Assembly (NCBI GenBank): GCA_963847145.1
Contig: CAWJYN010000002.1
Span: 17,810-81,809 of the forward strand
Reading direction: 5' to 3'
Origin: an uncultured Alphaproteobacteria bacterium
Lineage (GTDB): Bacteria; Pseudomonadota; Alphaproteobacteria; Rhizobiales; Hyphomicrobiaceae
Length of the DNA: 64,000 bases
The notes below the pieces were generated by a model, which was not told where the DNA came from, did not search any database, and saw only the letters and a program-made list of their open reading frames with translations. Of the stretch, positions 2,081-45,335 are shown one piece after another. Position numbers and translations under genes: made by a program. The first letter of the stretch is position 1, and each line of letters starts with the position of its first letter.

Positions 2081-3631
2081 GTGCGAGTGCCCTCCGCCAG
2101 CCGTTTTGACAGTGATCGCTCCCGTTCGGGCGAACTTGAACCTATGGCAGTTGTCGATATCGGTTCGAATTCAGTGCGTCTTGTGGTTTACGAGGGCGCA
2201 GTGCGCGCACCGACTGCGTTGTTCAACGAAAAGGTGCTGGCGGGCCTTGGGCGCTCCATCGCTTCAAAAGGCGCGTTGGATGAAGACGCCATCGCACGGA
2301 CACTGGAGGGGCTGGCGCGCTTCAGTGCGATACTACGAGTTCTTGGGGTCAAGAACGTGCGTGCGATCGCCACGGCGGCGTGTCGCGAGGCCCGCAACGG
2401 CGCGCAGTTCATAGCGCGCGCCGAGAAGGCATTGGGTGCCAAGATCGATGTACTATCGGGCGCACAAGAGGCTGAGCTGGCGGCCAATGGGGTCATGATG
2501 GGCTTTGAGGCGCCGGATGGTATCGCTGGCGATCTCGGTGGCGGGTCGCTTGAGCTGATCGATATCGCCGGCAAGACGCTCCGGCATGCGACAACTCTGC
2601 CACTGGGATCGTTGCGCTTGTTGGATTCCTCGGGCGGCCGCATCGACAAAGCGCTGAGCTTTACCGACGACGAGATCGCTGGCGTGCCTTGGATTGGGAA
2701 GGGAGCCGGCCGGACATTTTACGCGGTCGGTGGCACCTGGCGCGCCTTCGCCAAACTGCATATGGCTGCCCGCGACTATCCCCTGCACATGATGCAAGGG
2801 TATGCACTGCCGGCCGCCGAGGCGATCGATTTCTGCGAGCAGATTCGGAAGTCCAAGAAACTGGCCGGAGTTGCGGCCGGCCACACAGTTTCCAAAGCAC
2901 GGCGCGAGGTGTTGCCGTACGGTGCGCTGGTGCTGGAACGGTTGCTGCGCAAGCTCAAGCCGCGCGACGTAGTGTTTTCGGTTTTTGGCGTGCGCGAAGG
3001 ACTAGTCTACAAACTCCTGTCCCGAATTGAGCAGGATCGGGACCCGCTGATCGCGTTTGCCACCGACTATGCCATGCTGCGGTCACGCTCGTTCAAGCAC
3101 TCCCAAGAACTCTGCACGTGGACGGACGCATTATTCGCGCCTGGTGGACCAAGTGAAACTTCGGTCGAGCGGCGGCTCAGACATGCGGCTTGTCTGCTCT
3201 CAGACGTAGCCTGGCGGGCGCATCCCGACTACCGGGGCGAGCAGAGCCTGGTGGGTGTTGCTTATTCAGCGATGGCTGGCATCGACCATCCCGGCCGTGT
3301 CTTTCTTGCCATGGCCAGCTACTACCGCCATGCTGGCCCCGGCGGTAAAGACGACGAAGTCGCCGAACTATCGACCCAACTGGCGCCGCTGCTGCCAGGG
3401 CGGTTACTGGAGCGGGCCAAGATCGCGGGCGCAGCGGTTCGGGCGGCCCACATGCTATCAATCGGCCGCCCAGGCATTATCGACGAAGTGCCATTGAGTT
3501 ACGAAAAGGACCGGCTTGTGGTCGCCGTGCCCAAATCGTATGCCGCCCTCAATGGCGACCGGCTGCAACGGCGCTTTGTGACGCTGGCGTCCCTTTTGGG
3601 CAAAACTGCTGAAGTGCGGATAGTCCCCTGA
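2081..3631 (+). CDS. ppx: exopolyphosphatase, Ppx/GppA family
   Basis: Has Ppx/GppA actin-like ATPase motifs AVVDIGSNSVRLVVYE and DLGGGSLEL. Start is uncertain: GTG 2081 or ATG 2144. Confidence 0.85.
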   Translation: MRVPSASRFDSDRSRSGELEPMAVVDIGSNSVRLVVYEGAVRAPTALFNEKVLAGLGRSIASKGALDEDAIARTLEGLARFSAILRVLGVKNVRAIATAACREARNGAQFIARAEKALGAKIDVLSGAQEAELAANGVMMGFEAPDGIAGDLGGGSLELIDIAGKTLRHATTLPLGSLRLLDSSGGRIDKALSFTDDEIAGVPWIGKGAGRTFYAVGGTWRAFAKLHMAARDYPLHMMQGYALPAAEAIDFCEQIRKSKKLAGVAAGHTVSKARREVLPYGALVLERLLRKLKPRDVVFSVFGVREGLVYKLLSRIEQDRDPLIAFATDYAMLRSRSFKHSQELCTWTDALFAPGGPSETSVERRLRHAACLLSDVAWRAHPDYRGEQSLVGVAYSAMAGIDHPGRVFLAMASYYRHAGPGGKDDEVAELSTQLAPLLPGRLLERAKIAGAAVRAAHMLSIGRPGIIDEVPLSYEKDRLVVAVPKSYAALNGDRLQRRFVTLASLLGKTAEVRIVP

Positions 3632-3722
3632 TTGGGCTCCGCCATGAACATGCCGCAAGATTTGCGGCGCGGTTTGGTGTAAAGTCCAGACGAATGAGAT
3701 GATAGCGAGCCGGCGCACAACC

Positions 3723-4616
3723 ATGGCTGACGACCTCTACAAGGAACTTGGCGTCGCGCGAGGAGCGTCAGATGATGACATTCGGCGTGCTTACCGCAAG
3801 CTCGCCAAGGAATTTCACCCGGACCTGAACCCGGCTAACCGGGTGGCCGCGGAAGCACGCATCAAAACGGTCAATGCCGCCTTCGCGATCCTTGGGGATG
3901 CAGAAAAGCGCCGCCAGTACGACGCCGGACTGATCGATGGCAACGGCGATCCCCGCCAGCGCACGCAGCGGACGTATGCGGGCGCCAGTCGGCCCGGTGC
4001 AGGCGGCGACGATTTCGGTTTTGGTGACATTTTTTCCGATCTGTTCGGCCGTGGCCGCGGCGGACCCGCCAGTGCATCGGGGCTACGCGGGCCCGATGTG
4101 CGCTACACGTTGGAAGTCGACTTTCTGGAAGCTGCCAACGGGGCTCGCAAGCGCGTCACCATGCCCGGCGGCGCAGCACTAGACCTGACGGTGCCGGAGG
4201 GTGTGACGGACGGGCAGGTGCTGCGTCTCAAGGGCAAAGGTGGCGAAGGTCCGCGAGGGGGCGAGGCTGGCGATGCGCTGGTAGAGATCAAGGTCCGGGC
4301 GCATGCCGAGTTCCGTCGCACCGGCGACGACATCCTTCTGACTGTCCCCGTGACGATCGACGAGGCGGTGCTGGGCGGCAAGATCGAGGTCGCCACGATC
4401 CACGGCCGCGTCGCCTTGACCATCCCGAAGGGTACCAGTTCCGGCCGCGCGTTTCGCATGAAGGGACGCGGCGTGCGGCCTGCACCGGGACAGACACCCG
4501 GCGACCAGATCGTCACCATCGCCATCGTCATGCCCGACGAGATCGACGACAAGCTGTCTTACTTCATGACGGAGTGGCGCCGCGACCACGCCTACGATCC
4601 TGGCCGGAAGGGCTGA
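3723..4616 (+). CDS. J-domain co-chaperone, CbpA/DnaJ-like, without Cys-rich zinc finger
   Basis: N-terminal J domain with HPD motif (YRKLAKEFHPDLNP), a G/F-rich linker and a DnaJ C-terminal beta-domain (DVRYTLEVDFLEAANG...). ATG at 3723. Confidence 0.8.
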   Translation: MADDLYKELGVARGASDDDIRRAYRKLAKEFHPDLNPANRVAAEARIKTVNAAFAILGDAEKRRQYDAGLIDGNGDPRQRTQRTYAGASRPGAGGDDFGFGDIFSDLFGRGRGGPASASGLRGPDVRYTLEVDFLEAANGARKRVTMPGGAALDLTVPEGVTDGQVLRLKGKGGEGPRGGEAGDALVEIKVRAHAEFRRTGDDILLTVPVTIDEAVLGGKIEVATIHGRVALTIPKGTSSGRAFRMKGRGVRPAPGQTPGDQIVTIAIVMPDEIDDKLSYFMTEWRRDHAYDPGRKG

Positions 4617-27436: not shown

Positions 27437-28552
27437 GTGGCACTCGACGCACCATCGAAGTCGACAACGGCACCCGAGCTGGCGCTGATCGTGCCGACGT
27501 TCAACGAGCGTGGGAACCTGCGTACGCTCGTTGGACAGATCGAGGCCGCCCTCGGCGCGCGCCGCTGGGAGCTTATTTTCGTTGACGATAGTTCGCCCGA
27601 CGGCACTGCCGCCCTCGCACGTGAGATGGGCCGCGAAGACCCCCGCATCCGCTGCATTCACCGCATTGGACGCCGTGGTTTGGCGGGTGCCTGCATTGAG
27701 GGTTTTCTCGCCACTTCCGCGCCCGTCATGGCGGTGATGGACGCGGACCTGCAACACGATGCTACGTTGCTCGGGCGGATGCTTGAAGCGCTTGAACATG
27801 AGCAGGCCGATCTGGTGATCGCCAGCCGTTATAGCGCTGGCGGTTCAGCCGACGCCGGCTTCAGCGCCTTTCGTGGCTTTGCCAGCAAACTCTCCACCTC
27901 CATTGCGCGTTTCGCCACCGGCGTCACCGTGACCGATCCGATGAGCGGGTTCTTCATGATCCGCCGCGCGGCTTTTGAACCGCTGGCACCGGGCCTGGCC
28001 TCTGAAGGCTTCAAAATTCTGTTCGACATTCTAGCGACCGCGCGGGGCTCATTGAAAATTGCCGAGGTCACGTATTCGTTCGGCGCGCGTCAGGAAGGCG
28101 CCTCGAAGTTTGATACCCAGAACATTCTCGATTTTCTGGGCTTGATCGTTTCGAAGACGACCGGCGGTATCGTGCCGGTCCGCTTTCTCAGCTTCGCTAT
28201 GATGGGTGCGGCGGGCATTTTGGTCCATCTCGCGACCTTGGATGTGCTCAAGCGGTCGGGCGTTTCGTTCGGTGCGGCGCAGGCGATTGCAACGCTGGTG
28301 GCGATGACGTCGAATTTCTTCCTCAACAACGCCACCACCTACCGTGACCGGCGGCTGAAGGGCGCGGCTGCCGTCAACGGGCTACTGGCTTTTTATGCCA
28401 TCTGCAGTATCGGTGCATTGAGCAACATCGGCGTCGCGCACTGGCTACACTATGACAACGGCTGGCGCTGGATCATGGCGGGTTTTGTGGGCTCACTGAT
28501 TGGCGCGATTTGGAACTTTACCCTGTCGAGCCAACTGATGTGGCGCAAATGA
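27437..28552 (+). CDS. family-2 glycosyltransferase (polyprenyl-phosphate sugar transferase type) fused to a GtrA-like membrane domain
   Basis: GTG 27437 after AGGAGG. GT2 motifs LIVPTFNE and FVDDSSPDGT. The C-terminal ~130 aa has 4 hydrophobic helices (GtrA-like). Confidence 0.8.
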   Translation: MALDAPSKSTTAPELALIVPTFNERGNLRTLVGQIEAALGARRWELIFVDDSSPDGTAALAREMGREDPRIRCIHRIGRRGLAGACIEGFLATSAPVMAVMDADLQHDATLLGRMLEALEHEQADLVIASRYSAGGSADAGFSAFRGFASKLSTSIARFATGVTVTDPMSGFFMIRRAAFEPLAPGLASEGFKILFDILATARGSLKIAEVTYSFGARQEGASKFDTQNILDFLGLIVSKTTGGIVPVRFLSFAMMGAAGILVHLATLDVLKRSGVSFGAAQAIATLVAMTSNFFLNNATTYRDRRLKGAAAVNGLLAFYAICSIGALSNIGVAHWLHYDNGWRWIMAGFVGSLIGAIWNFTLSSQLMWRK

Positions 28553-30105
28553 TCGCCAACGTACGCGCGTCCAGTGGCGATGGCCGCGCGCTGCGGACGG
28601 TGCTGGCACTCATCGCCTTCGTCACCGGTGCACGGCTGGTGCTTGCCGCAACCCTTGGCCTCGGTGTCGACGAGGCATATACGGTTGCGACATCCCGCGT
28701 TCTCGCGCTCGGCACGTTCGACCACCCGCCACTGGCCTGGTGGCTTTCGGGAGGCGCTGCCAAAGTCTTCGGCACGGAAGCACCGCTCGCCGTTCGCTTG
28801 CCGTTTATCGCCCTCGGCGCGCTCACACTCTGGCTCGCGTTCGATGCGGGCCGATACCTCTACTCGGCGCGCGCCGGGCTCTATGCGGCTGTTGTGGTCG
28901 TTCTCGCGCCTGTGCTTGGCTGGACGAGCGGCAGCATGGTGCTGCCTGATGGCCCTTTGCTGGCGGGTTTTCTTGCCGGCCTGTGCTGTCTTGCCCGGGC
29001 ACTGTTTGGTGATAGTGCCAGTGCGCCGCGCTGGTGGCTGCTCGCGGGCTTGGCTGCGGGTATCGCGTGCCTATCCAAACTGCACGGGATATTTCTGCTG
29101 GCGGGCACCGGGCTCTTTCTGCTCACCACACCCTCGCATCGCCATTGGCTATCCAAACCGTGGCCCTACCTCGCGGCCCTGATCGCGCTCGTCGTCGCTA
29201 GTCCGTTTCTGCTCTGGAATGCGGAGCATCAGTGGATCTCGTTTGCGTTCCAGGCCGGGCGCGCGAAAACCAACCGCATCGATCTGGCCGGTCCGTTCGT
29301 GGCGCTCGGCGGGCAGGCGCTGTTTTTGCTGCCGTGGGTGTGGGTGGCGCTGATGCTGTCGCTGGGCCGTGCGCTATGGGGAGGCCCGGGCCGGCCACGC
29401 GACTGGCTGTTGGTGTGCTGTGCCATCGGCCCCATCGCCGCCTTCACACTGATTGCTGTCACGGGCACCAAAACCCTGTTCCATTGGGCGGCACCCGGTT
29501 ATCTCTTCGTCTGCGTGCTGCTCGGCCGTGATCTGGCGCGCGATTTGGACGCCGGGTTGCGGCGCGCGCGGTCCTGGTTGACTGGCTCACTTGCGTCGAT
29601 TGCGGTGCTGTTCGTCATCGTCCTGGCCCTGGCCTATGCGCCCTGGCCGCAGCTCGTGCTCGCTGGCAAAGCCCTGCCTTACCCGCTGGTCGAAACCCGC
29701 TCGTGGCGCGAAGTGCGGGCGCAACTTGCAGTCCGCGGTCTACTCAATGCGCCAAATACCTTTGTGGCTGGCGTGCGCTGGCATGAGACTGGCCGCCTCG
29801 CCGTGGCGCTTGGCCCGTCCGTGGCCGTGCGGTGCCTGTGCACCGATCCTCGTGGCTTCGGGATCCTGACCGACAACCGCGCCCACATAGGCGCCGACGC
29901 CTTGATCATCGCGGCGGATCAGTCCTCGAAAGAAATCCTGCAGACACTCGGGCCCTATTTCGCGTCATTGGAGGTCCTGCCATCCCTGCAGATCACGCAG
30001 GGTGGCCGGATGCTGACCGCGTTGGCGCTCTATCGCGGCCGTGCGCTGCAAGACCCGGCGCTGCCAAGACCCAATGTCCTGCGTCCTTTTGCGTCTGGAC
30101 GTTGA
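28549..30105 (+). CDS. family-39 (ArnT/PMT-like) membrane glycosyltransferase
   Basis: ATGA overlap with the upstream stop. Multi-pass membrane protein with a first-loop acidic motif GVDEAYT and a soluble C-terminal domain. Confidence 0.75.
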   Translation: MIANVRASSGDGRALRTVLALIAFVTGARLVLAATLGLGVDEAYTVATSRVLALGTFDHPPLAWWLSGGAAKVFGTEAPLAVRLPFIALGALTLWLAFDAGRYLYSARAGLYAAVVVVLAPVLGWTSGSMVLPDGPLLAGFLAGLCCLARALFGDSASAPRWWLLAGLAAGIACLSKLHGIFLLAGTGLFLLTTPSHRHWLSKPWPYLAALIALVVASPFLLWNAEHQWISFAFQAGRAKTNRIDLAGPFVALGGQALFLLPWVWVALMLSLGRALWGGPGRPRDWLLVCCAIGPIAAFTLIAVTGTKTLFHWAAPGYLFVCVLLGRDLARDLDAGLRRARSWLTGSLASIAVLFVIVLALAYAPWPQLVLAGKALPYPLVETRSWREVRAQLAVRGLLNAPNTFVAGVRWHETGRLAVALGPSVAVRCLCTDPRGFGILTDNRAHIGADALIIAADQSSKEILQTLGPYFASLEVLPSLQITQGGRMLTALALYRGRALQDPALPRPNVLRPFASGR

Positions 30106-35626: not shown

Positions 35627-35912
35627 CCTCGCTTATCGTGGCTGTTGTGCCACGCATGCAGAGCGGAGTGTCGGTCAGCAACCATCGCGGGTTGACGACG
35701 GCGTGCGCACGGCCAAACGTAAAAGGCGGCATTTTCCTTAATCGGGATATCGGGTTGCTGACAGCGATCGCGATACCCTAAGCTTACGGAAGGTGGCCTA
35801 GGCCGGACGCCGGGGGGCGTTAGCGGCTGATTGCCGACGTGGGTCCCGTTCCACGGGAGCAAACCAGCAGTTCCCAATCGCCTCAGCACACGGGTTCCTT
35901 GCGAGGAGTTCG

Positions 35913-38669
35913 TTGCGCGCGCTTAGTGTTGGGTTAGTGTACGAGTACCGCCGCATGACACAGGGGGGGGCACGGTCTTTATTCGCGGGGGTTCTCCGCC
36001 TCGTCCCCTATTCCGGTATTCAATTCTGCGATGTGGCCGTACCGGCGGGCGTTGCAGCGGAGCTGGTGACGGAATTCATCGAAGAAATTTTTGAGTCCGA
36101 CGGCGTTCCCCACCGCATCCTGTTACCGCTGGAAACCCGCCCCGACGCGCCGGTCGCGCCGCAGGCTGACAACGCTCAAGCAACGGCGCCCCAGCGCGTC
36201 GTCCACCCCGTGACCGGCCGGCCGGTCGATCCTGCTCGCATTCTCGAAATGGACGGCGTTGGTGCACTGTCGTACTTCGCGGCACGCTGGGTTCCGCTGC
36301 CGTATTTGCGTTTTATCGGCCGTGATGAACTCCAACGGCCCCGTTACGATAGCGGGCCGACCAATTGGGCCCGGGCCTGGATTGCGCCGGCTGCTGGGAA
36401 TGCCGCAGCACAGTTCACGGTCACCCTCGCCTTCGACACAAATCTGGAGCGCCAGTCCCGCTTCGACGCGGCGGCCTATCTGGCGCCTAACAACGACGAC
36501 GCTGCGTTTGGGTCGACGTTCATCTGCGCTGAGACCGTCGATGATCTGGGGGCGCTGATTGGTGAGCCTTGGCTGCAGGCATGGCTGGCCGATGGAGCGG
36601 CTCCTTCGAGTGAGGCGGGCGAGCCGGCAACGGCAGAGTTCCGCCATCGTCATATCGCGCAGTACCTGACCCTTCTGCGGTTGCTCGCCCGCGCCGGTAT
36701 CATGCCGGAGGCGCGGTTCATCGACACCATCCAACGGCGGTTCCCGATCCGCACCACAGCTGTCGATCTGGTGCTCGACCTTGGGGACACCGAGACCACG
36801 GCCTTGCTTGTCGAAGTGCCGCCTGGTCATGCCGACCGCCCGGCCGGGGGCTTTGCTGAACCGCTGCGGCTGCGCGAACTTTCCTTCCCCAATACCGTGC
36901 ACGAGGGGCCGTTCCCGACCGCTGCCGAGTTCAACGGCCAGCCGTTTGGCGACGCGATGTTGTCACGTGACAGCGGACGCCATGATGCTTTTACATGGCC
37001 AAGCCTTGTCCGCATCGGCCACGAGGCGCGCCGGCTCTCCCTGCGCAACAATGGCACTGAGGGTGTCACCGGGCTGTCCAACCTGCGCTCGTTCCTCCTC
37101 GATGAAACGGTCAATGCTGGGCTTTGGCGCCAGAGTACCGATGACGCCATCGGCGCCGAGCATGGCCCCATGGTCTCGGGGCTGACGCTGGCGCATGTCG
37201 GCGAGAATGGCGCACTGCTTGGTGCTGAGCCTGCTGACGCGACGCTGCCACGTCTTGGCGCGCCGCGGCCAGCGATCCGGCCTCGGTTCTCGCGCGCGTC
37301 GATGATCGGCTTCTTTGCGGCCGAGTTGGTTTTGCATGCGCTGGCGCAGGCCAATGCCGCCAGCCCCCATGGCAACGGCAGTGGCGAAAATGAAATGCGG
37401 GAACTGCGCCAGGTTGTCGTTCTGGCGCCAGCGACCCTGAGTGCGCGCGAGCGGGATGCTTTGCGGTTGCGCGTCGATGCCGGGATCGTACTGGCGTGGC
37501 GCGGCCTCGGCTGGGACCGTGCGGCCGGGGTGCCGCGACGGCCGACGGTCGTGCTTGGCCTTGGTGGTGATGTCGGCAGCCAAGTCGCGTTTCTGCACGA
37601 CGAAGTTAGCAGCAAGTACCAGGGCCGCTTTCTCGACCTGCTGCGCGTGTATCGCGGCGGTGATGGGGATGGCGTGGAAACGCTGCGCGTCGCCTCGGTT
37701 GACTTCGGCGCGCGCACAACCAGCCTGACGATTGTGGACTATACAGCGCTTGACGATCCCTTGGGCGCCAGCGCGTGGGAACCAACGATCAAGGTGGCGG
37801 AGCGGATGCCCGTCGGCACCGATGCGGCGGCGCAGGCTCTCATCTGGTCGATCGTCCTGCCGGCCATCGAGCGGCATTTGGAGGCCTCCGCTCTGAGGCC
37901 GGCGCGGCACTTTTTAGACGAGATCACCGGCCGCTCAACGACCAGCCTGCTGATCGACGATCCATACTTCACGCGCCGGTTCAATCGAAAAGTGCTGTGG
38001 CCTGCCGCGCGCGGCCTTTTTCTACTTGATGAACATGGCGCTCGCAGCACCGCTGATGGCAACCGGTCGGTGCGGCTTTCAACGCTCGTCGCGCTGGGTG
38101 GTGGGCGGCTCGATACGGCGGCGCAGGCGTTCGATGCAGCAGCGTTGCAAGCCGGCGCGCGGGACTTCGCGCTCGCCGATGCCGAGGTCCAACTCCGGCG
38201 CGGTGAGATTGGACGTCTCATCGCCGCCGAGATGCAAGACGCCGTGACCCAGGTCAGCCGCGTTGTGGCTGCGCAGGCCTGCGACCTCTTGTTGCTGGCC
38301 GGCGAAGGGACGCGACTGCCCGCACTGCAAAGCGCCGTACTTGCAGCGCTTCCCGTTCCAGCAAGCCGCATCGTTGATCTCAACACACATGTGAACCGCA
38401 GTGCCTTGGAGGCGCTCGGTCCGGCAGGGCTACTGGCACCAGCGACCATGATGCCGGCCATTGCCGCCGCGCTTGATCGGCGCAATAGTCTCGAGGCCAG
38501 CGGGTTTGGCGCCCGCGCGCTGCGTCTGCTCGGGGCACCGGTGTCACCGGATCGTGAGTTTCCGCGCGTGCGCGCGCCGTCGTTGTCTGAGCCCGTTGCC
38601 GGTATGCTGCGCGTTTCTGCCATCGCCGCGGCACCAGCAGCCGCTCCCGTTCCCGGCAAGGGGGCGTAA
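35913..38669 (+). CDS. large actin/Hsp70-fold ATPase-like protein (SrfB-like)
   Basis: 918 aa; TTG start 5 nt after GAGGAG. Phosphate-1-like LDLGDTETTALLVE (DLGDTETT at 36777-36800). Hsp70-like VVVLAPATLSARERDALRLRVDAG. Phosphate-2-like VDFGARTTSLTIVDY (37701-37721). Adenosine-like LLLLAGEGTRLPALQ (38283-38321). N-terminal SGIQF motif as I recall for SrfB. Confidence 0.65.
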   Translation: MRALSVGLVYEYRRMTQGGARSLFAGVLRLVPYSGIQFCDVAVPAGVAAELVTEFIEEIFESDGVPHRILLPLETRPDAPVAPQADNAQATAPQRVVHPVTGRPVDPARILEMDGVGALSYFAARWVPLPYLRFIGRDELQRPRYDSGPTNWARAWIAPAAGNAAAQFTVTLAFDTNLERQSRFDAAAYLAPNNDDAAFGSTFICAETVDDLGALIGEPWLQAWLADGAAPSSEAGEPATAEFRHRHIAQYLTLLRLLARAGIMPEARFIDTIQRRFPIRTTAVDLVLDLGDTETTALLVEVPPGHADRPAGGFAEPLRLRELSFPNTVHEGPFPTAAEFNGQPFGDAMLSRDSGRHDAFTWPSLVRIGHEARRLSLRNNGTEGVTGLSNLRSFLLDETVNAGLWRQSTDDAIGAEHGPMVSGLTLAHVGENGALLGAEPADATLPRLGAPRPAIRPRFSRASMIGFFAAELVLHALAQANAASPHGNGSGENEMRELRQVVVLAPATLSARERDALRLRVDAGIVLAWRGLGWDRAAGVPRRPTVVLGLGGDVGSQVAFLHDEVSSKYQGRFLDLLRVYRGGDGDGVETLRVASVDFGARTTSLTIVDYTALDDPLGASAWEPTIKVAERMPVGTDAAAQALIWSIVLPAIERHLEASALRPARHFLDEITGRSTTSLLIDDPYFTRRFNRKVLWPAARGLFLLDEHGARSTADGNRSVRLSTLVALGGGRLDTAAQAFDAAALQAGARDFALADAEVQLRRGEIGRLIAAEMQDAVTQVSRVVAAQACDLLLLAGEGTRLPALQSAVLAALPVPASRIVDLNTHVNRSALEALGPAGLLAPATMMPAIAAALDRRNSLEASGFGARALRLLGAPVSPDREFPRVRAPSLSEPVAGMLRVSAIAAAPAAAPVPGKGA

Positions 38670-38672
38670 CGC

Positions 38673-41216
38673 ATGCGTCCTGAGCAGAAAATCATCCTGT
38701 CCTGCCGGCAGACCGGTGAACGCGCCGAACGTCTGCAGGAATGGCTTGACCAGAGCCGGCTCATGCTCAAATCGCAGAGCCGGGCGCTGCGCACCGAAGT
38801 GCAAGTTATTCACAGCGAGTTGTCCGACGTGATGGAAGCGGTCGAGTTGCCGCCGACGGCGGGCGTACTCGGCAGCTGGGGCAGTCATCGGGCCGCGTTG
38901 GTCGGCGCCCTGATGTCTGAAATGCCGAGTAGCGAGGACGACACGCGGACAACCCTTGGCAGGGACCGGCTGCTCACGTTGATGCCGCGGGACTGTGACG
39001 GCGGTCAGGTCGCGAACTTGCGGTTCGTGTCTGCAGCGCGCACCGAGACGCCGTTCCGGTTCCCGATCCAGATCGGACTTCTGAGCCAGCTTGATCTCGT
39101 TAGGATCATCGCGTGCGCTTATGCCGTGCATGTGCCGCGGCGACAGCAATGCATACCCGCCGCGGAGATTGTCGCCGAACGGCTGGCGTCGATGGCCGAG
39201 CAACTGGGAACGCAATCGTTCTCCGGCATGGCGCGCCGCGATATTGATAGCATCCGCGAGGCGCTGCATGCAGCCGTGCCGGACAGCGAGGTTCTGCGCA
39301 GTCTCGAAGCGGCAGGGTATTGGGACACGCTGGGTGGGCTCATTCCGCATTTGCCGGATGCAGCGCGGCGACGGGCGTTTGCGATGCTTTGGGGCGCCGA
39401 TCCCGCATTAACCGAGCTCTTCGATCGCCTTTCCGATGCAATCGAACTGCTGGGGTTCACAGGGGAAGCGTTCGCCGGGGTGGATGCGCTGACGGGCCGC
39501 GATGCGGTGTCCGGATGGATCACCCGGCACGAGGACAGTGTCATTGCAACGTCGACGCTCTTCACGTGTTTCCAAGCGCCAGAGCGGACGGCGCGCATAT
39601 CGAGCCGACACGGGCGGGCGACCGATGTCGAGCGCTTCATCATCGCAGCCCTCGCGCGCGACGTGCGGTTGCCTGTTGATGCGGCGGCACTTCCACTCAT
39701 CGAGACCGCTGATCTGCTCGTGTTACCGGCGCCCGCGCCGGTGATGTTGTGGCCTCCTGTGGAGCGGCTGTCACGGCTCGTGGCGCCGCCGGGTACGCAA
39801 AATCTCACCGCGCTTGAGGCGCTTGAAATTTTCGCGGCGGCGAAGGCTGTGTATCTTGCCGACCAAGCCGTGCGCCGCCACACGCTGACAAGTTTGCTCG
39901 TCGTTGCTGCAAATGCCGAGAGCGCGTCGCGTCCCGAAATCGATGCGTCGGTCAGCTCCTTGGTTGCCAACTGGGTGGAGTTGAACCAAGGCGAAACCGC
40001 TCACGTGCGAGAGCGCCGCCGCACGGGACTCAGTATTCTGGTGGCGGAGGCGGATCGCCACGCGCTGCCCTCGGAGAGCGTGTTTGGAACACACGACAGC
40101 GCCCAGCACCTCACCTCAACGATCGAAGCGGTGTTCGACGGCAACGCCGAATGGGCCGCCGAATGGACTCCCAACCGCGCGTTCCGCAACGTGTTTACGT
40201 GGCAGCCGCCGCAAGGACCCAAACCCAGCACACGCGATGCCGGCATCGGGGACCCCCCCGGGACGGCCGATATTCTGCGGTTTGACCGGCACCGTTCCGG
40301 CGACGCGTATGCAGTCAAATCGGCAGAACTGAGCGCGCCGTCAGATTTGACGGGTCTCGTGCAGGCCGTGACGCAAGCCACCACTGCTGCAATCCATGCA
40401 CAGCATCTTTCGGCACGCCTGGTCGATCTCCGCCGCAATCTGTCCGCCCGGTTTCTGCGATTGCACATTTCGAACGACCCGACCAGCATCGTCGAGTGGC
40501 GGCGCCAAGTATGCCACGTGGCGCGCAACCGGCTGGACCGGGCGTCTAGCTTCGGAACGTTTGGCCGCTTGCAGCGCGCGTTGATGTTTTCTGAAGCCGA
40601 GGCCCTCGCCGTCATTGCGCGCCTGAAGACCGAGGACCCGCGCGCATCGGCTGCCCGCGGTGTGGACCTCCGCACGATCGAGCCGCTGCGGGTCGTCGAA
40701 GCATGCCTGGAGACTTGGATTGTCGCCATGCGCCAGATCACCCGCGCAGCGCCGCTGATGCGAACCCTGCGTGTGCCCGGGACCGTTGTTGCCCATGTGA
40801 TTGACGAACTGGTGCTGGGTGCCGTGCGGATCGGGCTGCAGCAAAAGCTCACCGAAGCGGTCCGCCGGATACAACTCAGCGCGGCCCGCGCGCTCGACTG
40901 CGAGCTGGCGGTGGCGGCGCTGATCGCGCGTGGCGTCAATGCTTACGTCGAGACGCTGGATCCGGGCGCACGCGGCGCACGGCCGTCCGGCACGCGTGAT
41001 ACGCGATTTGGGATGAGCACCGCCAGTGGCGCGGCGCTTGCAACGCCTATCCGGTCGGCCGGTACAGTTGCCGCCGTCTGGGCAGAAAAGTTCAGCGATC
41101 TGGTGGAAGCCAATATTCTCGGGGCCAGCTTGCTGGGCGGCGCCGGTCATCTCAATCGCGAACTCGGCGAAGTTCTCAATGCCATGTCCGCGCAATCCTA
41201 TGAGGGGTCGCTATGA
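38673..41216 (+). CDS. large helical protein, SrfC-like partner, no Walker A
   Basis: 847 aa. ATG lies 3 nt after the upstream stop. No GK[ST] anywhere in the protein. The P-loop-like position reads GVLGSWGSHRAAL (38862-38900). Family call is from memory and synteny only. Confidence 0.5.
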   Translation: MRPEQKIILSCRQTGERAERLQEWLDQSRLMLKSQSRALRTEVQVIHSELSDVMEAVELPPTAGVLGSWGSHRAALVGALMSEMPSSEDDTRTTLGRDRLLTLMPRDCDGGQVANLRFVSAARTETPFRFPIQIGLLSQLDLVRIIACAYAVHVPRRQQCIPAAEIVAERLASMAEQLGTQSFSGMARRDIDSIREALHAAVPDSEVLRSLEAAGYWDTLGGLIPHLPDAARRRAFAMLWGADPALTELFDRLSDAIELLGFTGEAFAGVDALTGRDAVSGWITRHEDSVIATSTLFTCFQAPERTARISSRHGRATDVERFIIAALARDVRLPVDAAALPLIETADLLVLPAPAPVMLWPPVERLSRLVAPPGTQNLTALEALEIFAAAKAVYLADQAVRRHTLTSLLVVAANAESASRPEIDASVSSLVANWVELNQGETAHVRERRRTGLSILVAEADRHALPSESVFGTHDSAQHLTSTIEAVFDGNAEWAAEWTPNRAFRNVFTWQPPQGPKPSTRDAGIGDPPGTADILRFDRHRSGDAYAVKSAELSAPSDLTGLVQAVTQATTAAIHAQHLSARLVDLRRNLSARFLRLHISNDPTSIVEWRRQVCHVARNRLDRASSFGTFGRLQRALMFSEAEALAVIARLKTEDPRASAARGVDLRTIEPLRVVEACLETWIVAMRQITRAAPLMRTLRVPGTVVAHVIDELVLGAVRIGLQQKLTEAVRRIQLSAARALDCELAVAALIARGVNAYVETLDPGARGARPSGTRDTRFGMSTASGAALATPIRSAGTVAAVWAEKFSDLVEANILGASLLGGAGHLNRELGEVLNAMSAQSYEGSL

Positions 41217-42508
41217 GTGCCTATCAAGTCGCTGTGGTGGAAGACGATGCAGCGCCGACGTCCGGCGTCGCGATCATCCGGATTGCCGGGTTGGAGGCTT
41301 GGCCACAGGGCGCAACGGTTCGCTTGCGGCCCATCGACGAGGCGTCGGTGCCGCCGCAAAGTGACGGCTGGCCATGGGGCGAGCTGGTGCCGTCGCGGGT
41401 GATTCCGAAGTCCGGTGGTATCGATGTGATCCTGGGACCGGATGTGGTTTCGAGCCATCGGCTGGTGCCAGGCACGCCCGTGACGATCGAAGTGAGTGCA
41501 GCCAATGTCGAAGCCGATGTGCGTTGGCCGGCCATTACGCCGACAGCGCCGCGGCGGGTGAGCGCTGTGGCGATGAGCGCGACGCAATTGCTGGCCGCCA
41601 AGTCCGAGCGCGAACGCGTGGAAAAGGAAGCGGCGACGCGGCGGCAGCAGATGGCGGAGTCGGCCGCCCTCTCCGTGCGTGAGGCTGCAGCCGAAGCGTC
41701 CTCCGTTCGGGTGGCGTTGGCAGTCGCCGCCCCGGTCGCATCGAAAGAAGCTGGGCAATTGGCGCGGCTATTTCCGGTCCGCAGGGCTAATGCCGTACTG
41801 ACGGCCGAGCAAAAGGTTGATGGGCAGTTGTCGCGTCTGGGTAGTGCCGTCGAGCGCGCTGCGACAAACGCTGAGCCGACGCCGCGTCCGGTGGCACGTG
41901 GGCGGGCATCCGCCGCCATCACGAGTTTCATCGCCGGCGCCGTAACGATGGCAGGCGTTGCAGCCGGTGTCGCACTGTTGGCGCCGCAGTGGCTGCCACG
42001 CGCGCCTGTGGCGCCGGCAGCGGCGCTGGGCGCACAGATGTCGGTTGTGAACCTCGAGAGCGTGTTCAAGGACCTCGGCAGTGCGGGCCCAACATCGCCG
42101 CGGCGCAAGTCAGCAACGAACGTGGATCTGCCGACGGCGTTGTCGCTGGCAGACCACAGTCTGCGCGGTCAGCGAACGTCTGCCGAAACAGAAGAAGCCG
42201 AGTTCTGGCTGAAACGCGCCTTGAACGCGAGCTTCGGTGGCACGGATGTCGGGTGGGCACTGACCCAGCTCGGCACGATCTATGCGCAATCCGACAGTCC
42301 GCGGCACAGCTATGCCAAAGCACATACTGTCTGGCAGCTCGCGGCTGCGCAGGGTGATCCGGTGGCGCATTGCTTCCTGGGAGCCATCTACGAACATGGT
42401 CTTGGCGTTACCGCCAACCGTCAGATTGCGCGCGGGCACTACGTCATCGCCGATACCGCCAATGCTTGCCGCAGTGCCAAAGAGGCCGCTGCTCGTTTGA
42501 AAGACTAA
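41213..42508 (+). CDS. bitopic inner-membrane protein with periplasmic Sel1 repeats
   Basis: ATGA overlap with the upstream stop. No signal peptide. TM helix AAITSFIAGAVTMAGVAAGVALLAP (41909-41986) with Arg-rich N-side. C-terminal Sel1-like repeats (AQGDPVAHCFLGAIYEHGLGVTANRQIARGHY; ~42194-42448). Confidence 0.6.
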   Translation: MSAYQVAVVEDDAAPTSGVAIIRIAGLEAWPQGATVRLRPIDEASVPPQSDGWPWGELVPSRVIPKSGGIDVILGPDVVSSHRLVPGTPVTIEVSAANVEADVRWPAITPTAPRRVSAVAMSATQLLAAKSERERVEKEAATRRQQMAESAALSVREAAAEASSVRVALAVAAPVASKEAGQLARLFPVRRANAVLTAEQKVDGQLSRLGSAVERAATNAEPTPRPVARGRASAAITSFIAGAVTMAGVAAGVALLAPQWLPRAPVAPAAALGAQMSVVNLESVFKDLGSAGPTSPRRKSATNVDLPTALSLADHSLRGQRTSAETEEAEFWLKRALNASFGGTDVGWALTQLGTIYAQSDSPRHSYAKAHTVWQLAAAQGDPVAHCFLGAIYEHGLGVTANRQIARGHYVIADTANACRSAKEAAARLKD

Positions 42509-42513
42509 CCGCT

Positions 42514-44208
42514 ATGTCGAAACAACCACTTCATTTGTTTGCTGCCGGGCTGCTGTCTGGTTCCGCTCTGCTGGCGGCCGTCGGTGCTGCCCAAGCTCAA
42601 ACAGCCGCGCCAGCGCCGGGTCCCACGCTGCCGAATTTCGTCGACACGCGGCCTTTGCCGCAATCTGACCGCGCGCGCGCCGACGAGGCGGAAGCAAAGC
42701 GAAAAGCCGATGAAGAGATCAAGCGCCTCGCCGGCGAAGCCGACGCCAAGCGCCGGTCGGATGAGGAGGCGAAGCGCACCGCTGCCGAAGCGGACGCCAA
42801 ACGCCGGGCCGACGATGAGACACGCCGGCTTGCGGCGGAAGCTGAGACACGCCGCCTTGCGGCGGAGACAGAGGCCAAACGCGTGGCGTCCGAGGCCGAA
42901 GCCAAGCGCAAGACCGAAGACGACGCCAACCGGTTGGCGGCGGCGACGGAAGCGCGGCGCAAGGCTGACGAAGACGCCAAACGTGCCGCCGCCGAGGCCG
43001 ACGCCAAACGCAAGTCTGACGACGAGACTGCTCGTGTTGCGGCTGCGGCGGAGGCCAAGCGCAAGGCGGACGAAGAGACACGGCGCGTGGCGGCGGAAGC
43101 CGAAGCCAAACGCGTGGCTGCCGAAACGCAGGCCAAGCAACGCGCCGATGCTGAGGCAAAGCAAAGAGCTGAATCCGAAGCAAACCGCGTGGCCGCGGAG
43201 GCTGAAGCCAAGCGTGCGGCAGCGGCGGAGGCTGAGGTCAAACGGGCTGCGGCGGAGGCCGAGGCCAAGCGCCGGGCGGATGAAGAAACACGGCGGCTCA
43301 CAGCGGAGGCGGAAGCCAAACGCCGTGCCGACGAGGCCGCACGAGCCGCTGCGGCAGCACGGCCAGCAGCACCCGCCCCGGCAGCGCCGGCCAGCGATAC
43401 TGCGCGCCTTCTGGAGCGCGGCCGGCAGCTGGTCAGCAATGGGGACATTGTCGGTGCGCGTCTGATCTTCGACAGAGCGGCCGGACTTGGCAGCGCCGAC
43501 GCAGCGTTGGCGCTTGCCGATACGTTTGATCCCGAGGTGCTGCGGCGCGGGGGCACCGTCGGCGTTGCTGCGGACCCGGCGCAGGCCGCCTTCTGGCGCA
43601 AACGCGCTGATGAACTCGGTGGCGGAACGGCAGCCGCGCAGCAACGCGCCGCAGTGGCGGCAGCAGCAGCAGCTGCACAGCAACAGCAACAACAGCAACA
43701 ACAGCAGCAACAAGCAGCCGCTCAAGCGGCAGCACAGTCGGCGGCACAAGCCGCTGAGCGTCAACGTGCGGCCCAGCAGGCGGCCCAACAAGCGGCGGCT
43801 GCCGCCACAGAACAACAGCGCAAGGATGCCGCGGCGACCGCCGCCGCCGCCGCTGTGGCCGAGCAGCAGCGGCAAGCCGCCGAACAGCAGCGGCAAACGG
43901 CGGCGGCAGCGGCGGCCGCTGCTCGCCCGGCCTTATCGCCCGACGCAGAACGCTTCCTGGCACGCGGCAAGCAAATGCTTGGCACCGGCGATATCGATGC
44001 GGCGCGGTTGTTCTTCGAGCGCGCTGTCACGGCGGGTGCTGCGGAAGCGGCCTTGGAACTTGGCGGGACGTTCGATCCGGTGGAGTTGCGCGCACTTGGC
44101 GTGGTCGGTCTGCAGGCTGACGCAGCGCGGGCCGCGGCTCACTACCGGCAGGCACAAAAGATGGGTGCACCGGCGGCCGCGGCCCGGTTGCAACGCCTCG
44201 GTCAGTAA
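42514..44208 (+). CDS. Sec-exported protein: TolA-like charged repeat helix, poly-Gln/Ala linker, two Sel1-like modules
   Basis: ATG 42514 lies 5 nt after the upstream stop. Signal peptide MSKQPLHLFAAGLLSGSALLAAVGAAQAQ. Repeat region is aa 52-281. 12 Gln at 43678-43713. Duplicated modules at 43399-43617 and 43936-44166. Confidence 0.65.
   Translation: MSKQPLHLFAAGLLSGSALLAAVGAAQAQTAAPAPGPTLPNFVDTRPLPQSDRARADEAEAKRKADEEIKRLAGEADAKRRSDEEAKRTAAEADAKRRADDETRRLAAEAETRRLAAETEAKRVASEAEAKRKTEDDANRLAAATEARRKADEDAKRAAAEADAKRKSDDETARVAAAAEAKRKADEETRRVAAEAEAKRVAAETQAKQRADAEAKQRAESEANRVAAEAEAKRAAAAEAEVKRAAAEAEAKRRADEETRRLTAEAEAKRRADEAARAAAAARPAAPAPAAPASDTARLLERGRQLVSNGDIVGARLIFDRAAGLGSADAALALADTFDPEVLRRGGTVGVAADPAQAAFWRKRADELGGGTAAAQQRAAVAAAAAAAQQQQQQQQQQQQAAAQAAAQSAAQAAERQRAAQQAAQQAAAAATEQQRKDAAATAAAAAVAEQQRQAAEQQRQTAAAAAAAARPALSPDAERFLARGKQMLGTGDIDAARLFFERAVTAGAAEAALELGGTFDPVELRALGVVGLQADAARAAAHYRQAQKMGAPAAAARLQRLGQ
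42667..43356 (+). repeat. in-frame degenerate tandem repeats (AEAEAKR[RK]ADEE[TA]RR[LV]A units) encoding an Ala/Glu/Lys/Arg helix
   Basis: About 230 aa of iterated EAKR / ADEETRR units are visible in the translation. This also creates long spurious ORFs in other frames and on the opposite strand. Confidence 0.8.
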
Positions 44209-44300
44209 TGGCTCTGCGCAGTAATTCCGGCGTGGACACACATCGCGCCGGCTTGGATTTCATAACACCGGCCTTTCCGGCCCTACTTGGAGACAGTGAC

Positions 44301-45335
44301 ATGCCCGTAAGCGTACCGAAAATGACCGCTCTGAAGGCCGCCGCTGTGCTGGCCTTGGGAGCACTGGCGACGATCGCCGCGCCCGCCCAGGCGCAGTACA
44401 ACCCCAGCCAGCTCCGCGAAGACCTCAACCGCAACACAGCGAGCATCATCACGGGCACGCCGAGCGGCACTTACGTGCAGATAGCCTACGACATGAGCGC
44501 GGTGCTGGATGATGGCAATAACCTGCGCATCCTGCCGATCCTCGGCAAAGGCAGCGTGCAGAACGTGAAGGATATCTTGCATCTGCGCGGCATCGACATG
44601 GGCATCGTGCAGTCGGACGTGATGGGCTATTTCCGTCAGACGGGCGAGCTGGGCCGCGATATCGACAAGCGGCTGGTGTACGTGACGAAGCTCTACAACG
44701 AAGAAGTGCACATCGTTGCCGGCAAGGGCATCACGTCGCTGAAGGACCTCGCTGGCAAGCCGGTCAATTTCGCCGAGCAAGGTTCCGGCACGCAGTTCTC
44801 TGCGCGGCAGATCTTCAAACTGTTGAAACTCGACGTGCGCGAAGTCAACATGGGCCAGACGGATGGCTTGCTGAAGGTGAAGCAAGGTGAGATCGCTGCC
44901 ACCATCTTCGTCGCTGGCCGGCCGGCCGCGGCAGTGAAGGCACTAGCCAAGGACCCCGATTACAAGTTGCTGCCGATCCCATTCTCAGCCGACGTCGAGA
45001 ACGACTATCTGCCAGCAAAGCTTTCCAACGAGGATTACCCGAACCTGATCGAAAGCGGCCAAAGCGTCGAGACCATTGCCGTGGGCGCCGTGCTCGCGGT
45101 CTTTAACTGGGGCGAGGGCACCGATCGCCAGCGCCGCGTGTCGGCGATCGTCGACAAGTTCTTCACAAAATTCGCCGACTTCCAGAAGGCACCGCGGCAT
45201 CCGAAGTGGAAGGAAGTCAATCTTGCGGCCCGCTTGCCGGGCTGGAACCGCCTGCCCGCGGCGACCGCATGGCTGGAGCGGAACGGCCAGGTCAAGCGGA
45301 GTGATGTTTCCGGTGCGACCAGCGCTGGCGAGTGA
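44301..45335 (+). CDS. periplasmic solute-binding protein (TAXI/NMT1-like)
   Basis: ATG 44301. Signal peptide MPVSVPKMTALKAAAVLALGALATIAAPAQA. Segment IITGTPSGTYVQIAYDMSAVL resembles the TAXI TGGxxGxYY region. Confidence 0.6.
   Translation: MPVSVPKMTALKAAAVLALGALATIAAPAQAQYNPSQLREDLNRNTASIITGTPSGTYVQIAYDMSAVLDDGNNLRILPILGKGSVQNVKDILHLRGIDMGIVQSDVMGYFRQTGELGRDIDKRLVYVTKLYNEEVHIVAGKGITSLKDLAGKPVNFAEQGSGTQFSARQIFKLLKLDVREVNMGQTDGLLKVKQGEIAATIFVAGRPAAAVKALAKDPDYKLLPIPFSADVENDYLPAKLSNEDYPNLIESGQSVETIAVGAVLAVFNWGEGTDRQRRVSAIVDKFFTKFADFQKAPRHPKWKEVNLAARLPGWNRLPAATAWLERNGQVKRSDVSGATSAGE

Follow-up and report, generated by a model that had tools for sequence, protein, structure and literature searches.

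A SrfA-less, four-gene form of the Srf cluster in Hyphomicrobiaceae and its possible role at the cell envelope

The window analyzed here is a stretch of 64,000 nt from a member of the Hyphomicrobiaceae (Rhizobiales), namely positions 17,810-81,809 of the forward strand of contig CAWJYN010000002.1 (assembly GCA_963847145.1). The list of open reading frames (ORFs) and direct reading of the sequence place four closely packed genes, here named A, B, C and D, on the plus strand at 35913-44208 (Table 1), and our best reading is that they represent the Srf (SsrB-regulated factor) cluster family in a reduced form without SrfA. SrfB and SrfC are large and widely distributed proteins that have been labelled "virulence factors" since 2000, with a mechanism still lacking. 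Both families are known and automatically annotated, and SrfABC stands in the literature as a toxin without known mechanism; what is new here is a SrfA-less, GTPase-dead form of four genes that includes a periplasmic partner. The three junctions read exactly as the original prediction, made from this DNA alone, had given them: TAA-CGC-ATG (3 nt) between A and B, a 4-nt ATGA overlap that sets the start of C within the stop of B, and TAA-CCGCT-ATG (5 nt) between C and D, with a purine-rich stretch ahead of every one of the three starts.

Table 1. Features of the four-gene locus, in window coordinates
Feature	Position	Strand	Description
Non-coding leader	35627-35954	+	286 bp to TTG 35913 or 328 bp to ATG 35955
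Gene A	35913-38669	+	918 aa from TTG; SrfB family
Gene B	38673-41216	+	847 aa; SrfC family
Gene C	41213-42508	+	431 aa; predicted bitopic inner-membrane protein, conserved "fourth Srf component"
C, cytoplasmic N-terminal domain	41213-41557	+	aa 1-115; without Pfam or NCBIfam model
C, transmembrane helix	41915-41983	+	aa ~235-257; from hydropathy
C, periplasmic Sel1-repeat region	42200-42505	+	two conserved Cys
Gene D	42514-44208	+	564 aa from an ATG internal to the ORF starting at 42370; predicted Sec-exported periplasmic protein
D, signal peptide	42514-42597	+	aa 1-28, ending ...AAQA before QT; AxA site, no lipobox Cys
D, motif PNFVDTRPLP	42631-42660	+	mature N-terminus; in D and D' of both Hyphomicrobiaceae tiers
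D, A/E/K/R-rich helical region	42709-43279	+	degenerate 51-nt (17-aa) and 27-nt tandem repeats (Tandem Repeats Finder)
D, first TPR-like module, "FDP" motif	43381-43629	+	TPR_14, sub-threshold
D, second, C-terminal TPR-like "FDP" module	43927-44205	+	kept in all close relatives
GC-rich hairpin	44227-44251	+	19 nt past the stop of D; weak T-tail

Predicted products of the four genes

Gene A belongs to the SrfB family, as had been supposed from the sequence; it matches Pfam PF07520 with 411 bits (E 1.5e-122; cut-off 27.1), its residues 27-825 aligning to positions 11-797 of the 992 in the model and positions ~800-992 remaining unmatched. Sequence searches against the PDB gave nothing usable for either A or B: single-sequence and profile searches with A returned no usable match and no detectable similarity to Hsp70, and those with B returned no dynamin match, the best being the P-loop of GBP1 (E 0.065). 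Hence, a comparison of predicted folds was needed. For the AlphaFold2 (AF2) model of A (predicted local distance difference test, pLDDT, 80.5; predicted template modelling score, pTM, 0.85), all top 50 Foldseek matches in the PDB were members of the Hsp70/Hsp110 family, mostly nucleotide-binding domains (NBDs), with E-values down to 2.4e-11 and target TM-scores up to 0.69. The core of the model (~aa 280-830) superposes on Hsp70 NBDs, and A resembles the Hsp70/actin (ASKHA) ATPases in its two-lobed, RNase-H-like core as well as in the phosphate-1, phosphate-2 and adenosine motifs. It differs from Hsp70 in lacking detectable sequence similarity, in possessing a large beta-rich N-terminal region (aa 27-270) and further insertions, and in that no substrate-binding domain was detected; moreover, the operon holds no gene for a J-protein or an exchange factor.

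The ASKHA motifs were checked in 25 SrfB homologues, down to 23% identity. Both Asp residues of phosphate-1 (DLVLDxGxxxT; D285 and D289) are present in all 25, its Gly in 23 and its Thr in 21; phosphate-2 (DxGxxTT) is kept in 20-22 of the sequences, while D791 and G797 of the adenosine motif (DLLLLxG) are again found in every one. A itself retains D285/D289/G291/T295, D597/G599/T602/T603 and D791/G797. According to its model, A is an SrfB protein with a nucleotide-binding core of the Hsp70/actin fold, the fold anticipated by the original prediction, and with intact ATP motifs; since the ASKHA signature is complete, it looks catalytically competent as an ATPase. The earlier view that none of the four products carries a recognisable enzyme domain has to be revised, as A keeps the whole ASKHA ATP-binding signature and B shows a predicted dynamin-like fold with a dead GTPase site.

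The SrfC assignment of B, likewise foreseen, is borne out by a match to Pfam PF10139 (Virul_Fac/SrfC) of 200 bits (E 7.7e-59; cut-off 28.1). With the AF2 model of B (pLDDT 75.9, pTM 0.82), the best PDB matches found by Foldseek were SynDLP (E 2.5e-6), BDLP (1.5e-4) and Fzo1 (7.5e-4), with probabilities of ~1.0, and further matches included MFN1 (mitofusin-1), Campylobacter DLP1/2, IniA and Drp1. The predicted fold is alike to that of the bacterial dynamin-like proteins (Nostoc BDLP, SynDLP, Campylobacter DLP1/2, Mycobacterium IniA, Bacillus DynA and LeoA of enterotoxigenic Escherichia coli) and of mitofusin/Fzo1. No membrane paddle was identified in B, and its attachment to the membrane would be indirect, via C.

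We compared the G motifs of B and its close relatives with those of canonical SrfC from Rhodovastum, Zavarzinia and Falsiroseomonas. Canonical SrfC has dynamin-type motifs at the aligned places (G1 GxxxxGKS, the switch-I Thr in VTR, G3 DxPG and G4 TK), whereas in B all of G1-G4 are substituted: GxSQAGKSYLIS is replaced by GSWGSHRAAL at G1, ATGxVTRF by GQVANLRF at switch I, DLLDFPGAR by DLLVLPAPA at G3 and LVLTK by ILVAE at G4. The description of the second gene as Walker-less is confirmed by this alignment, and together with the modelled fold it suggests that B is probably a dynamin-like pseudo-GTPase; because none of the G motifs is present, GTP-driven fission or fusion by B is unlikely. In a sister lineage of Hyphomicrobiaceae (loci are numbered here with the prefix L), G1 and G3 are both kept in L010, L013 and L014, G1 alone is kept in L007, and both are gone in the others. 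The P-loop reads GSGKT/S in L007, L010, L013 and L014, AKS in L006 and L008, and xxR in L011, L015 and the tier to which the window belongs, and all SrfC proteins of the sister lineage have lost the switch-I Thr and the G4 TK. Judging from these alignments, the decay of the SrfC P-loop has apparently been graded and independent within the Hyphomicrobiaceae.

The product of C has no signal peptide and contains a single hydrophobic helix (hydropathy maximum 2.11 at aa 239-257; flanks RPVARGR and PQWLPRAP on its N- and C-terminal sides). As the N-terminal flank is Arg-rich, C is predicted to lie in the inner membrane with its N-terminus inside and its C-terminus outside. Against the Sel1 (PF08238) cut-off of 30.7 bits, full-length C scores 26.3 and its periplasmic part, scanned by itself, 31.2, which is a borderline result; the orthologue in L005 reaches 52 bits. 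A Pfam scan of 86 C-family proteins found Sel1 at E<=1e-3 in 67 and a fusion to PBP_like_2+OmpA in two, and the periplasmic residues G417 and C419 are nearly invariant in the family. The topology and periplasmic Sel1 repeat proposed earlier for the third gene can therefore be retained, with the repeat at the borderline of detection.

The cytoplasmic N-terminal domain of C (aa 1-115) matched no Pfam or NCBIfam entry. A word-indexed homologue search with its profile yielded only 4 short proteins, and an exhaustive search of 1.84 billion representative proteins proved far more informative: it gave 212 matches at E<=1e-3, and in each carrier protein the domain forms the very N-terminal end. A variable spacer lies between this domain and the periplasmic Sel1 domain, and hidden Markov model (HMM) matches to it lie directly after srfC in every locus. 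The idea that it might be a diverged N-terminal part of SrfA was rejected (hhalign probability 0.05%). Gene calling divides the C-family gene of two loci (L024:10001-11578 and L023:10001-11064) into one ORF for the N-domain (140-151 aa) and another for the part downstream; the cause could be a frameshift or an assembly error, or the gene may be genuinely split, in which case the N-domain can act as a separate polypeptide.

The Sec signal peptide and the long charged helix attributed to the fourth gene are supported by the hydrophobic N-terminus of D, by the AxA site and by the tandem repeats; the A/E/K/R-rich stretch comprises about 275 residues, has an AT-skew peak of 0.279 and would span ~40 nm if it formed a single continuous helix. 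The accompanying label "TolA-like/Sel1" is not sustained, as D gave neither a Sel1 nor a TolA match in Pfam and no TolA match in NCBIfam, and its likeness to TolA is one of composition. D is similar to TolA domain II in its long A/E/K/R-rich helical repeats but differs in having a cleavable signal peptide instead of an N-terminal membrane anchor and in lacking domain III. Both TPR_14 matches in D fall below threshold (E 0.018 and 0.056). When the "FDP" modules were compared with the periplasmic "YDP" region of the fourth component in canonical Srf loci, hhalign returned weak, motif-centred alignments (E 0.001-0.006, probability 6-21%). A search for PNFVDTRPLP-type motifs found them in 10 loci, exclusively in the ORF after C; the peptide is a candidate for docking. 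D varies from 346 to 564 aa among relatives. A poly-Gln/Ala linker joins the two TPR-like modules; its coding sequence at 43660-43718, an imperfect (GCA)n / 9-nt repeat, is likely a hotspot of length variation.

Comparison with other Srf loci

We compared the locus with eight canonical Srf loci, namely those of Rhodovastum (L020), Zavarzinia (L021), Oleomonas (L023), a Klebsiella plasmid (L025), Rhizobium pRL10 (L026), a Methylobacterium plasmid (L027), Rahnella (L028) and Enterobacteriaceae bacterium Kacie_13 (L029). An SrfA-family gene lies immediately upstream of srfB in all eight. SrfA has been described as a bitopic protein with a cytoplasmic pseudo-kinase-like domain, a transmembrane helix and a periplasmic lipocalin, and in an AlphaFold 3 model of SrfABC it serves as the platform for SrfB and SrfC; the same 2026 preprint describes a vWA gene, a Lol-like ABC pair and a SUMF1/FGE gene as accessory genes (bioRxiv 10.64898/2026.09.18.752743). 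Among our eight loci, these accessory genes are present in Zavarzinia, Oleomonas and Klebsiella and partly in Rhodovastum, and trypsin-like protease genes lie upstream in the three Alphaproteobacterial loci of Zavarzinia, Oleomonas and Rhodovastum. The extended form occurs in Klebsiella plasmids, Haemophilus and Zavarzinia.

The window locus resembles the srfABC operon of Salmonella (SsrB-regulated factors) and Xenorhabdus in the order and tight coupling of the SrfB and SrfC genes, and in having a bitopic protein with a cytoplasmic N-domain and a periplasmic C-domain, encoded by a gene homologous to the one that follows srfC elsewhere. SrfA itself was not detected: its NCBIfam model (NF040486) matched none of A-D nor the TAXI-family protein encoded downstream, tblastn with two SrfA proteins found nothing in the 64-kb window, and an HMM built from 8 SrfA proteins found nothing in the window or in any Hyphomicrobiaceae locus, so that the absence of a SrfA-like gene, remarked on in the original prediction, extends to the related loci. 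With the accessory genes of L020 and L021 as tblastn queries, none was found near the cluster, the sole match in the window being an unrelated ABC ATPase at 26.4 kb, and the Hyphomicrobiaceae loci yielded none of them either; the locus thus differs from the extended form in that SrfA, vWA, ABC/FtsX, FGE-sulfatase and trypsin-like genes were all not found. Two further losses accompany that of SrfA. The G1-G4 motifs of SrfC have decayed, and a C-terminal module of ~90 aa (31-33 + 53-66 residues), which an alignment places in all canonical SrfB homologues, is absent from A and from every Hyphomicrobiaceae SrfB; since its loss coincides with the absence of SrfA, this module is a candidate for binding SrfA. 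Unlike the srfABC operon, the window locus adds the periplasmic coiled-coil/TPR-like protein D, and it is chromosomal and syntenic in free-living Hyphomicrobiaceae, not plasmid-borne or associated with pathogens.

Six of the eight canonical loci carry a "hypothetical" gene of 310-403 aa directly after srfC; in Oleomonas it appears as a pair of ORFs (140 and 214 aa). The Zavarzinia gene matches the C N-domain by BLAST (E 3e-7) and is part of the HMM seed, as is that of Rhodovastum, a member of the seed alignment with 17% identity to C; the HMM recovers the genes of Oleomonas (2.6e-30) and Rhizobium (8.5e-8; hhalign probability 92%, E 7.5e-7), and hhalign that of Methylobacterium (probability 69%, E 4.6e-5). 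As a homologue sits behind srfC in several annotated Alphaproteobacterial Srf loci, the N-domain of C is, on this sequence evidence, not an oddity of the window. For the Klebsiella gene the similarity to the C-N profile was not significant, and what it shares with C is the architecture (N-domain, linker, transmembrane helix and a periplasmic helical "YDP" region). Rahnella and Kacie_13 have no C-like gene after srfC. A Sel1-containing membrane anchor next to SrfB and SrfC had been regarded as an undescribed pairing, yet the gene behind srfC in Rhizobium, Methylobacterium, Zavarzinia, Oleomonas and Rhodovastum encodes a homologous bitopic protein. No Srf locus that we examined is without a bitopic partner: the minimal enterobacterial form (Rahnella, Kacie_13) has only SrfA, the other canonical loci have SrfA together with a C-like protein, and the Hyphomicrobiaceae have only a C-family protein. 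In the literature searched, we found no description of SrfB as Hsp70-like, of SrfC as dynamin-like or of a fourth component. A HscC-type Hsp70 gene lies a few kb downstream of the minimal srfABC in the plasmids of Rahnella (L028:17260-19522) and Kacie_13 (L029:15761-18770), followed by a gene for a J-domain protein in the former and by a hypothetical gene in the latter; this proximity is possibly coincidental.

Relatives of A were sought by a pattern scan of one genome per species. The 25-sequence alignment held no stretch conserved enough for such a search, and the pattern was built from 13 closer sequences; because these represent this subfamily, the 19 loci recovered are biased to Hyphomicrobiaceae. 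All of them come from Hyphomicrobiaceae or Hyphomicrobium metagenome-assembled genomes (MAGs), except for one labelled "Alphaproteobacteria" and one labelled "Hyphomicrobiales"; L005, L007 and L014 are from MAGs of Hyphomicrobium spp. Six form a close tier (A 60-73% identical) and thirteen a distant one, the sister lineage mentioned above (A 36-40% identical). The order A-B-C is kept in 16 of the 16 loci that extend far enough (15 of the 19 plus the metagenome locus L024), the 4-nt B/C overlap is kept wherever start coordinates were read, and a D-type gene follows C in most loci. The co-conservation of the four genes, which had been left to be checked, is thus present and more than chance, the order being kept down to 36% identity of A. 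Upstream, 4 of the six close-tier loci have a detectable flanking HAD gene, and two of these four keep the aminotransferase as well. The locus is a native chromosomal gene set, vertically inherited in the Hyphomicrobiaceae, with metabolic flanks that are syntenic in the closer relatives, and the GC content of the cluster, overall and at third codon positions (GC3), is uniform with its flanks.

In the distant tier, the product D' has a different C-terminal domain and keeps the signal peptide, the xF[VIYF]D[TAG]R[PR]LP motif and the charged helix. Its gene is followed by one for a 540-aa PBP_like_2+OmpA protein and then by one for a TctC-family binding protein (L005:18328-19965, with equivalents in L006, L009, L011, L013-L015 and L024). 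Since an OmpA-domain protein adjoins D' and fusions of C with PBP/OmpA occur, the Srf system appears to be tied to peptidoglycan, which suggests a recurrent peptidoglycan-binding partner that the lineage of the window lacks. A PBP/OmpA homologue (37% identity) and a protein with the C-terminal domain of D' are also encoded beside the canonical Srf cluster of Rhodovastum (L020:1475-2911, minus strand). Upstream of srfB and divergent from it, L024 carries a MdoG/OpgG gene for periplasmic glucan synthesis (2189-3871, minus strand), a further neighbor with a link to the envelope, and ORFs with a MdoG/OpgG-like conserved C-terminus occupy the same position in L005, L006, L008 and L009.

Possible function and alternative explanations

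We propose that the locus encodes a SrfA-less Srf machine that is ATP-driven, anchored in the inner membrane and serves the envelope of the cell itself rather than acting as a toxin; we give this explanation as a whole a probability of about 0.45. An ATP-driven assembly across the envelope had been the working hypothesis of the original prediction, and all our findings are compatible with it. The identities and architecture of A-D, on which it builds, we regard as very probably correct, and the mechanism, an envelope-spanning, ATP-driven tethering or remodelling, is held a little more tentatively than the whole. SrfA, SrfB and SrfC of Xenorhabdus co-immunoprecipitate (PMC6950479), and the association of SrfB with SrfC in that experiment points to a cytoplasmic complex of A and B. 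This complex would dock at the inner membrane on the cytoplasmic N-domain of C. Short linear peptides are the typical ligands of Sel1/TPR domains, and the periplasmic Sel1 domain of C might bind D, possibly via the conserved N-terminal peptide of the latter, while the long helix of D would bridge the periplasm towards peptidoglycan or the outer membrane. Turnover of ATP by A could then drive the assembly, disassembly or conformational change of the dynamin-like scaffold B, the energy input being assigned to A and not to GTP hydrolysis by B because the GTPase site of B appears dead and the ATP site of A intact. The output would be a membrane tethering or remodelling device for the cell's own envelope. 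Its layout, from a cytoplasmic motor through an inner-membrane anchor to a periplasm-spanning helix, is alike to that of Tol-Pal, from which it differs in that the cluster has no tolQ/tolR genes and no TolQ/R-like proton channel.

Several points weigh against this proposal. The TM-scores of the Foldseek matches to B are low, 0.19-0.28 on the query for full-length targets and 0.5 at most for truncated Fzo1/MFN1, although low global scores are expected for multi-domain, hinged proteins; moreover, a dynamin-like protein that has no GTPase motifs may carry out no membrane remodelling at all. The ATPase activity of A is predicted from its motifs alone, the TPR and TolA resemblances of D are only sub-threshold or compositional, and the contacts among A, B, C and D are ones that we infer. 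Finally, the sole experimental literature on Srf proteins reports cytotoxicity and not an envelope function (PMC6950479).

That last report raises the question of whether the locus encodes a multi-component toxin of the SrfABC type, whose large proteins are released and kill eukaryotic or other cells. The SrfB and SrfC of the reported toxin come from the Pfam families to which A and B belong, and lysates with co-expressed SrfABC of Xenorhabdus stockiae were cytotoxic and insecticidal (PMC6950479). Against this, SrfA, the effector or platform, was not found in the window or in 16 related Hyphomicrobiaceae loci, the Lol-like ABC, vWA and FGE genes proposed for export were not found either, A and B have no signal peptides, the cluster contains no secretion genes and the nucleotide site of B is dead; the hosts are environmental Hyphomicrobiaceae MAGs in which the locus is syntenic with housekeeping genes and does not lie in an island. 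We therefore consider a toxin very improbable. An anti-phage or conflict system, in which the dynamin-like and Hsp70-like NTPases would sense or seal membrane damage caused by phages and C and D would act as envelope sensors, seems improbable too, if less strikingly so. The bacterial dynamin DynA of Bacillus, with which B may be compared in its fold, is linked to phage resistance and membrane repair, and the trypsin-like protease, vWA and FGE-sulfatase genes of extended canonical Srf loci encode domains common in conflict systems. It is precisely the protease, vWA and FGE genes, however, that were not found here; A-D had no match in PADLOC-DB 2.0 at E<=0.1, the flanks are metabolic and syntenic in closer relatives with no neighbouring defence or mobile gene, and inheritance across the family is stable and vertical rather than patchy.

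The losses described above could also be taken to mean that the locus is a decaying remnant left after SrfA and the accessory genes were lost, the dead GTPase being a product of drift. The loss of G1-G4 in B, the graded decay of the P-loop across lineages, the missing C-terminal module of A and the failure to find SrfA would fit, whereas the four ORFs (431-918 aa) are intact and GC3 is as high as in the neighbouring genes; 16 loci in which identity falls to 36% for A and 28% for B still have the genes intact and in order, the overlap at the B/C junction persists wherever starts were read, and many positions of A and B are invariant outside the lost motifs. As pseudogenes would not remain open over such divergence, we find decay hardly credible. 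A lineage-specific morphogenetic or polarity module, which would organise the growth of membrane and envelope in the hyphae or buds of these prosthecate, budding bacteria in analogy to PodJ-like bitopic polar scaffolds with periplasmic Sel1/TPR domains, is an appealing special case of the proposed machine that we regard as unlikely rather than implausible. It would suit the finding of the SrfA-less form in Hyphomicrobiaceae only (in a scan that favours relatives), the combination of an ATPase of the actin/Hsp70 fold with a dynamin-like scaffold and a bitopic Sel1 anchor, and the peptidoglycan-binding OmpA-domain protein added in the sister lineage, often with opgG/mdoG adjoining; the argument is purely correlative, however, most of the source genomes being MAGs, and C-family proteins together with SrfBC also occur in the non-budding Rhizobium and Klebsiella.

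Returning to the envelope machine, we speculate further, and here with the odds clearly against us, that the Srf "virulence factors" in general constitute a widespread membrane-dynamics machine in which an Hsp70-fold ATPase acts on a dynamin-like protein at bitopic anchors extending into the periplasm, the Hyphomicrobiaceae form being a housekeeping, ATP-only version with a GTPase-dead dynamin as its scaffold and with D as a periplasmic ruler that links remodelling of the inner membrane to the wall or outer membrane. If this is true, the system would be the first in bacteria in which an Hsp70-like motor and a dynamin-like scaffold work as a functional pair, the Srf family would be re-assigned from toxin to cell-envelope machinery, and the role could lie in vesicle formation, membrane repair or hypha/bud envelope growth. 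Across an entire bacterial family the SrfB/SrfC pair has been retained without SrfA, the accessory genes or the GTPase site of SrfC, and several Srf loci regularly include an unnamed bitopic protein as their fourth component. Since a minimal, GTPase-dead form occurs naturally in non-pathogens, a dedicated toxin role is argued against; this form points to the Hsp70-like ATPase and a membrane anchor as the indispensable core, and with its four proteins it offers a simpler system for reconstitution and genetics.

Operon boundaries and neighboring genes

Upstream of A, the aminotransferase gene ends at 35626, 286 bp before TTG 35913, and GAGGAG lies 4 nt ahead of this TTG. The pair and the gap are therefore present as first reported, while the use of the TTG as the start is doubtful: in an alignment of the leaders of the window and four relatives, ATG 35955 (residue M15) is the sole conserved start codon, the TTG/GAGGAG pair is not conserved in the four relatives, and residues 1-25 of A are disordered in the AF2 model. 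Because ATG 35955 is the only start kept across relatives, gene A more likely encodes 904 aa and follows a leader of 328 bp. A block at ~35690-35768 (TTGACG ... TTTTCCTTAATCGGGATATCGGGTTG) upstream of srfB is common to the two closest relatives (L001 and L017) and could be a promoter or operator. An Rfam search of the leader gave no match above noise, and a promoter scan found no consensus sigma-70 site upstream of A. In L003 (9731-10000), the srfB leader or 5' extension contains a tandem GGCATCGGTTTCGGC repeat, which would give GIGFG repeats if translated and is absent from other relatives.

Downstream of D, the hairpin probably marks the end of the operon. A fifth ORF, encoding a TAXI-family TRAP solute-binding protein, nominally overlaps the stop of D by 1 nt, but its likely start is ATG 44301, preceded by GGAGA and located downstream of the hairpin. 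Since the hairpin follows D and the TAXI gene has its own likely start, a four-gene unit is a fair description of the locus. The TAXI gene (44301-45335, plus strand) is an orphan with no adjacent TRAP permease genes. It is kept downstream of D in L001, L003 and L017 and is not adjacent to D in L002 and L004, and a homologue with 46% identity lies near the L010 cluster on the opposite strand. In view of the hairpin, the start with its own Shine-Dalgarno sequence and the separation from D in L002 and L004, we rejected the TAXI gene as a fifth core member; its product may or may not substitute for the PBP/OmpA protein of the sister lineage.

Elsewhere in the window, a strong negative AT skew at 28-30 kb was considered as a possible second D-like gene and rejected. 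This stretch (27437-30105, plus strand) encodes a GT2 glycosyltransferase and an ArnT-like polytopic membrane glycosyltransferase, both unrelated to the cluster.

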